64,000 nucleotides of DNA from sequence record PQ356294.1, one strand, 5' to 3'. The notes beneath the pieces are model-generated. The model ran no database searches. It was given only the letters and a program-made list of their open reading frames with translations, and had not been told where the DNA came from. This DNA comes from Escherichia phage Ec_YwIITB1. Below, in pieces: positions 44,297-44,752 of this stretch (within the stretch, counting starts at the first letter, position 1; each line of letters begins with the position of its first letter). The position numbers were made by a program, and so were the translations under genes.

Positions 44297-44752
44297 TTAT
44301 TTTAAATCATCTGCCCAATCGAGTTTAAGAGGCTCTTTGTATTCACGATCTAATACGACCGGAATTTGTACATCACCGCTAAATGATAAGGGCCCAACAT
44401 TATAAGACAATGTTATATGCGGTGTGTAATCATCAAAATCATGTGTAGCACCTAGTGCCCGCGCATACATGTGTCGACAGCGCAGATATTCAGAATCTAG
44501 CACAAGTACAAGAGTCGATCCATCTTGTGTTTTCCATACTTCTAAATGTCCAGAAGAAGCTACTTCAAAACTTCCGCTTGATGGAACATACGGAACATTT
44601 ACTCTTGAATAACATATGGTCGAATGAATTTTTTCTCTAGGAACTGGATTAGGAACACGTAAAGAGCGCTGAAGTTCTTCCAGCGCATCAAGTGTTAATT
44701 CTGAAAACTTAGCTGCTACATAAAGACCCGTTGAAAAGTCTTTAAATTCCAT
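44297..44752 (-). CDS. 57B: 2H phosphoesterase (gene 57B; anti-CBASS nuclease Acb1 in T4)
   Basis: 151 aa; two H-x-T/S motifs (HSTICYS, HITLSY); position upstream of 57A. Confidence 0.75.

Follow-up and report, generated by a model that had tools for sequence, protein, structure and literature searches.

Acb1, the product of T4 gene 57B, was discovered by activity-guided fractionation of T4-infected cells as an activity that degrades 3'3'-cGAMP (Hobbs et al., 2022, PMC9117128). The T4 enzyme does not cleave cGG, cA4 or 3'2'-cGAMP (PMC9117128). Its pocket has four aromatic residues that stack on the bases (Y12, W74, F107 and W147) and a glutamate that reads the adenine N6 (E141), and residues 145-152 form a lid (PMC9117128). 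The scissile phosphate lies over a catalytic tetrad (H44, T46, H113 and T115), metal is not needed, and the ligand is cut 3' of adenosine via a cyclic phosphate intermediate (PMC9117128). The H44A substitution kills activity, and the H44A/H113A double mutant is catalytically inactive in vitro (PMC9117128). The structure of the Acb1 of Erwinia phage FBB1, solved without ligand (7T26) and with 3'3'-cGAMP (7T27), has a 2H phosphoesterase fold with a U-shaped pocket (PMC9117128). T4 lacking acb1 grows normally on hosts without CBASS and more than 300-fold worse on hosts with it, and lysates of the mutant have lost the cGAMP-degrading activity (PMC9117128). In an independent transposon screen, 57B was dispensable on K-12 and was depleted, that is, conditionally essential, on a CBASS-expressing host (HIDEN-SEQ preprint, 10.1101/2025.11.20.689424).

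Several other proteins reach the same outcome, the removal of a cyclic nucleotide immune signal and evasion of abortive infection, by different routes. Acb2 (T4 Vs.4) is a sponge that sequesters the signals, whereas Acb1 cleaves them. Apyc1, unlike Acb1, is a Zn-dependent enzyme of the MBL fold that acts on cCMP and cUMP, and poxvirus poxin is structurally distinct from Acb1 (Hobbs et al., 2022, PMC9117128). LigT-like 2H phosphoesterases (PF13563) share with Acb1 the two H-x-T/S motifs, metal-independent acid-base chemistry and a cyclic phosphate intermediate. Unlike these enzymes, Acb1 acts on cyclic oligonucleotide immune signals rather than RNA ends, and it has a C-terminal lid.

We analysed a stretch of 64,000 nucleotides (here called the window) from Escherichia phage Ec_YwIITB1 (PQ356294.1). 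The source is a Tequatrovirus, and around acb1 a 25-kb segment shares about 97% identity with Shigella phages sb1, sb3 and pSs-1. The features discussed below are listed in Table 1.

Table 1. Positions of acb1 and of related or neighbouring features in the window.
Feature	Position	Strand	Details
Acb2/Vs.4 orthologue, cyclic-oligonucleotide sponge	32998-33261	minus	97.7% identical to T4 Vs.4; Pfam Acb2_Tad1_hairpin, 72 bits
tRNA cluster	41917-42913	minus	10 solid tRNAs: Arg, Asn, Tyr, Met/Ile(CAT), Thr, Ser, Pro, Gly, Leu, Gln
Second PeSL-type copy	43914-43982	minus	84% identical to the first; at the end of the internal head protein gene, starting in its last 13 coding nt
Internal head protein allele at the ipI position	43967-44224	minus	85 aa; phrog_3499, E = 9.5e-49
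PeSL-type (promoter-early stem-loop) element	44244-44312	minus	69 nt; starts in the last 13 coding nt of acb1
Stem-loop in the PeSL-type element	44245-44274	minus	10-bp stem; inverted repeat
TTTACA-N17-TACTAT promoter-like site	44283-44255	minus	promoter scan
acb1 (gene 57B) CDS	44297-44752	minus	151 aa + stop; ATG start; only ORF listed at these coordinates
C-terminal lid, residues 144-151 (T4 145-152)	44300-44323	minus	includes W146 (T4 W147); identical to T4
Second catalytic motif, H112-I113-T114 (T4 H113/T115)	44411-44419	minus	codons CAT ATA ACA
First catalytic motif, H43-S44-T45 (T4 H44/T46)	44618-44626	minus	codons CAT TCG ACC
Gene 57A, tail-fibre assembly chaperone	44752-44982	minus	76 aa (76 aa in Bas37, 80 aa in T4); Pfam PF17594 GP57, 164 bits; phrog_1002

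Identity of the 57B product

The initial annotation described a 151 aa 57B-type 2H phosphoesterase similar to Acb1, and the ORF listing has this minus-strand ORF at exactly the coordinates that it gave. Aligned with T4 gp57B/Acb1 (NP_049750.1), the product is identical at 151 of 151 positions over T4 residues 2-152, and the DNA matches T4 57B at 452 of 456 nucleotides, with all four differences synonymous. The 57B protein of BASEL phage Bas37/KarlGJung is identical to it as well. The Pfam model PF23474 "Acb1" is matched over its entire length (positions 1-144 of 144) with a score of 202.7 bits, where the cut-off is 27 (E = 2.6e-60), and a PDB search returned FBB1 Acb1 (7T26/7T27) over residues 8-148 with 68% identity (E = 4.1e-62). 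The identity to T4, the Pfam family and the match to 7T26 bear out the proposal that the protein is Acb1, and on sequence grounds nothing in the ORF speaks against it. We conclude that the ORF is almost certainly the acb1 (57B) gene of Tequatrovirus, predicted to encode a metal-independent 2H phosphodiesterase that opens the cyclic di- and trinucleotides of CBASS. Sequence identity, residues, family and synteny were computed here, and the substrates, the mechanism and the anti-CBASS role are those published for the identical T4 protein. The annotation as Acb1 is correct and describes a known gene, of a kind that T4-like phages ordinarily carry. Two plus-strand ORFs that overlap acb1 (61 and 47 aa) were dismissed as lacking support.

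Both of the H-x-T/S motifs that had been noted were found (HST and HIT, Table 1). By themselves they are weak evidence, because at least two H-x-[TS] motifs also occur in 16% of shuffles of the protein, and the identification must therefore rest on homology. We aligned 11 sequences: the window protein, T4, the FBB1 crystal construct, and homologues from Muldoonvirus, Krischvirus, Tulanevirus, Lazarusvirus, Pseudotevenvirus, Schizotequatrovirus, Slopekvirus and a Salicola jumbo phage. H43, T45, H112 and T114 are invariant across this set, which spans 30-100% identity. Loss of either catalytic histidine motif, named in the initial annotation as what would speak against Acb1, is not seen.

The ligand-contacting residues are conserved along with the tetrad and the lid, with Y11, W73, F106, W146 and E140 of the window protein corresponding one-to-one to Y12, W74, F107, W147 and E141 of T4. 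FBB1 Acb1 has the same H-x-T/H-x-T tetrad; it differs in having one additional residue after the position that matches window residue 78 and in several conservative replacements in the pocket (e.g., F where the window and T4 proteins have W73 and W74, respectively). A single-sequence AlphaFold2 model of the window protein was uninformative (mean pLDDT 37.9, pTM 0.30). We infer a 2H fold from the 68% identity to crystal structure 7T26 over 141 residues.

Acting like its T4 counterpart, the protein would bind CBASS messengers that contain at least one adenosine and no more than three bases (3'3'-cGAMP, cUA, cAAA and cAAG). Aromatic side chains would stack on the bases and the glutamate would read the adenine N6, after which the C-terminal lid would close over the ligand. 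For cleavage, the strained adenosine is predicted to attack the 3'-5' phosphodiester with its 2'-OH over the H-x-T/H-x-T tetrad, and the ring would open through a 2',3'-cyclic phosphate intermediate to give a linear product (GpAp). With the signal removed, the CBASS effectors Cap4, Cap5 and CapV would stay inactive and there would be no cell suicide before phage release. The phage, like T4, may be able to degrade adenosine-containing cyclic di- and trinucleotide signals in this way.

Database labels point to a different function, in which the product would be a generic 2H RNA enzyme (a LigT-like 2'-5' RNA ligase or 2',3'-cyclic phosphodiesterase) that works on broken tRNAs or RNA ends, with cleavage of cyclic oligonucleotides secondary. 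The product matches phrog_755, which carries the label 'RNA ligase', many RefSeq records use this name for 57B, and the tRNA cluster lies 1.4 kb downstream of acb1. There is also a weak match to the LigT-like Pfam profile 2_5_RNA_ligase2 (PF13563), confined to residues 80-122 (E = 0.11). However, at 13 bits this match is far under the gathering threshold of 27, compared with 202.7 bits for the Acb1 model, and the resemblance is at the superfamily level only. Moreover, the identical T4 protein is itself the cGAMP-degrading activity recovered by fractionation, and its deletion is costly (more than 300-fold) only where CBASS is present. The literature examined reports no RNA-ligase activity, and the activity that it demonstrates is hydrolysis of cyclic oligonucleotides. 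We consider a primary role on RNA highly improbable and, given the Acb1 profile and the T4 biochemistry and genetics, reject 'RNA ligase' as the main function. The label appears to have been transferred automatically from the name of the 2H superfamily. Many records still say 'RNA ligase' or 'hypothetical protein' where the right name is anti-CBASS protein Acb1; beyond correct annotation, the importance of the gene is small.

A tblastn search with the acb1 product against 50,697 phage records identified a homologue in 1,470, and the protein is at least 99% identical in at least 498 of these. Homologues from a Pseudotevenvirus (Cronobacter phage leB, L008 2013-2582) and a Slopekvirus (Klebsiella phage 150040, L011 1959-2579) each have a C-terminal extension of about 55 aa. 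The extension is conserved between the two (...HDRTKELGEYDSK.A.EKRLRQIEYFK) and takes the place of the short T4-type Acb1 lid.

Start codon and expression at the 57A junction

The TAA stop of 57A overlaps the acb1 ATG (TAATG), an arrangement that suggests translational coupling. Expression is probably as in T4, by read-through from gene 1/57A combined with translational coupling to 57A. One substitution at 44750-44754 distinguishes the window from T4 and Bas37 (ATGATG to ATAATG). As a result, 57A ends in TAA instead of TGA and 57B loses the first of its two N-terminal Met codons (ATA for ATG), so that the acb1 product has 151 rather than 152 aa. The missing Met should not affect function, because the FBB1 construct that was crystallised lacks the N-terminal residues altogether.

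The change at the first ATG annotated in T4 could also mean that acb1 is no longer active or expressed and persists as a remnant, for example one that has no working start, and a strong Shine-Dalgarno sequence is not obvious in the 15 nt upstream of the start. However, the second ATG is intact and overlaps the 57A stop in a way that is common among coupled genes. The ORF is complete and differs from that of T4 only at synonymous sites, several of the phage records with a protein at least 99% identical annotate it at 151 aa, and the pSs-1 annotation has the same 456-nt CDS. A remnant is thus extremely improbable.

Further upstream, we identified promoter-like sequences. A late-promoter-like TATAAATA is located inside gene 1 (45338-45345, minus strand). 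MotA-box-like sites (TGCTT.A-N11-13-TA...T) are located upstream of gene 1 (45731-45756, minus strand) and within it (45217-45240, minus strand). These late-promoter-like and MotA-box-like sites, all of them pattern matches only, are candidate transcription routes to 57A and 57B.

Genomic setting and other defence-related genes

The genes on the minus strand are arranged as gene 4, 2, 3, 1, 57A, 57B, the 85-aa internal head protein gene, trna.4, trna.3, trna.2 and the tRNA cluster, as in T4 and pSs-1. Gene 1 encodes dNMP kinase (Pfam DNMK, 358 bits). The location between 57A and an internal-protein gene is the slot occupied by 57B in T4, as had been stated from the sequence. The order 3-1-57A-57B was found in the window, T4, pSs-1, Bas37, Muldoon, Skers, 60AhydR15PP, DLP3, leB, PC-Liy1 and Klebsiella phage 150040, and the order 1-57A-57B is kept across eight Straboviridae-type genera. 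Its conservation in distant genera argues that 57B owes its position to vertical inheritance and not to membership of an anti-defence island. A position directly downstream of 57A is typical of Acb1 in T4-like genomes and not strictly defining; the Acb1 homologue of the Salicola jumbo phage has a different gene context.

The initial annotation took Acb1 as a functional anchor for an anti-defence interpretation of the neighbouring unknown genes, a step that we find only weakly justified. In its favour, one neighbour alone, the internal-protein cassette immediately downstream, has an anti-restriction precedent. On the upstream side, however, gp57A, dNMP kinase, gp3 and gp2 are encoded by core morphogenesis and metabolism genes. 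Judged by gene order, 57B is the last gene of this conserved core block and, because acb1 lies at the edge of the block, adjacency by itself is no evidence for an anti-defence role of a neighbour. T4 Trna.2 co-purified with the DRT1 defence protein, an observation that its authors took no further, and we found nothing else in the literature on trna.2, trna.3 or trna.4. The window encodes a Trna.2 homologue that is 97% identical to that of T4.

A second anti-CBASS gene, encoding an orthologue of Acb2, was identified elsewhere in the window (Table 1). Acb1 and the Acb2 orthologue, 11 kb apart, provide this phage with the standard two-pronged anti-CBASS kit of T4.

A homologue of Tk.4 is encoded at 30848-31312 (minus strand) and is 58% identical to the T4 protein, for which the T4 record notes an A1pp phosphatase motif. 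The flanking vs.1, regB, vs.3 and vs.4 are 97-99% identical to T4. This pattern suggests that the Tk.4 homologue is a divergent allele or a replaced cassette.

The tRNA cluster of the window comprises 10 tRNAs and lacks segB, whereas that of T4 has 8 tRNAs with the segB homing endonuclease between them. Also lacking is the endonuclease found beside tRNA-Leu in Bas37. A remnant of tRNA-His is present at about 41976-42048 (minus strand), with a junction near 41990 where 25 nt (CTCCCATCGGTCACCCCAATTACGG) are missing relative to Bas37. This loss removes the 3' part of the tRNA-His and the spacer, and joins the remnant to tRNA-Arg. ARAGORN calls an overlapping tRNA-His at the remnant, whereas the Rfam tRNA model does not. 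Among the megablast matches listed from the phage collection, all that are full-length retain the additional 25 nt of the tRNA-His region, and the deletion is thus either unique to this genome or an artefact of assembly.

The stem-loop repeat and the internal head protein cassette

We identified a 69-nt direct repeat that begins within the end of acb1 and recurs at the end of the downstream internal head protein gene, so that the two copies flank that gene. Each copy includes a TTTACA-N17-TACTAT promoter-like site and a stem-loop. As the repeat begins inside the ends of both genes, Acb1 and the internal head protein both finish in -DLK. The whole window has 13 instances of the TTTACA-N17-TACTAT pattern, all of them on the minus strand. 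The element fits the PeSL consensus TTTACW-N17-TAYWAT reported for the PST/T4 pair (PMC4122927) and is thus of a known kind. PeSL elements have been proposed to mediate the shuffling of cassettes in hyperplastic regions (PMC4122927; PMC2839356).

The internal head protein (85 aa) is identical at 84 of 85 positions to bas37_0261, and its alignment to T4 IPI is limited to the N-terminal capsid-targeting segment. T4 IPI* is cited as countering GmrSD (cited in PMC4122927), and Bas37_0260 is reported to be an inhibitor of McrBC. The possibility that the 85-aa protein is this McrBC inhibitor was rejected, as the two align only over the N-terminal targeting signal of 11 residues. The window has no counterpart of the second Bas37 cassette, bas37_0260, and T4 ipII and ipIII have no match in it at E <= 1e-5.

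It is possible, if rather unlikely, that the 3' end of acb1 also serves as the left edge of a mobile cassette. Such a boundary would fit the Bas37 locus, where there are two cassettes, one of them encoding the McrBC inhibitor Bas37_0260. If recombination at PeSL elements does swap internal-protein cassettes, the end of the Acb1 lid would be under a double constraint, as protein sequence and as part of an element for recombination and promoter activity. In that case, Acb1 would be a fixed 'anchor' beside which injected anti-restriction proteins are exchanged. In other Tequatroviruses, a paralogue of the 85-aa protein, about 46% identical to it, adjoins the lysozyme gene.
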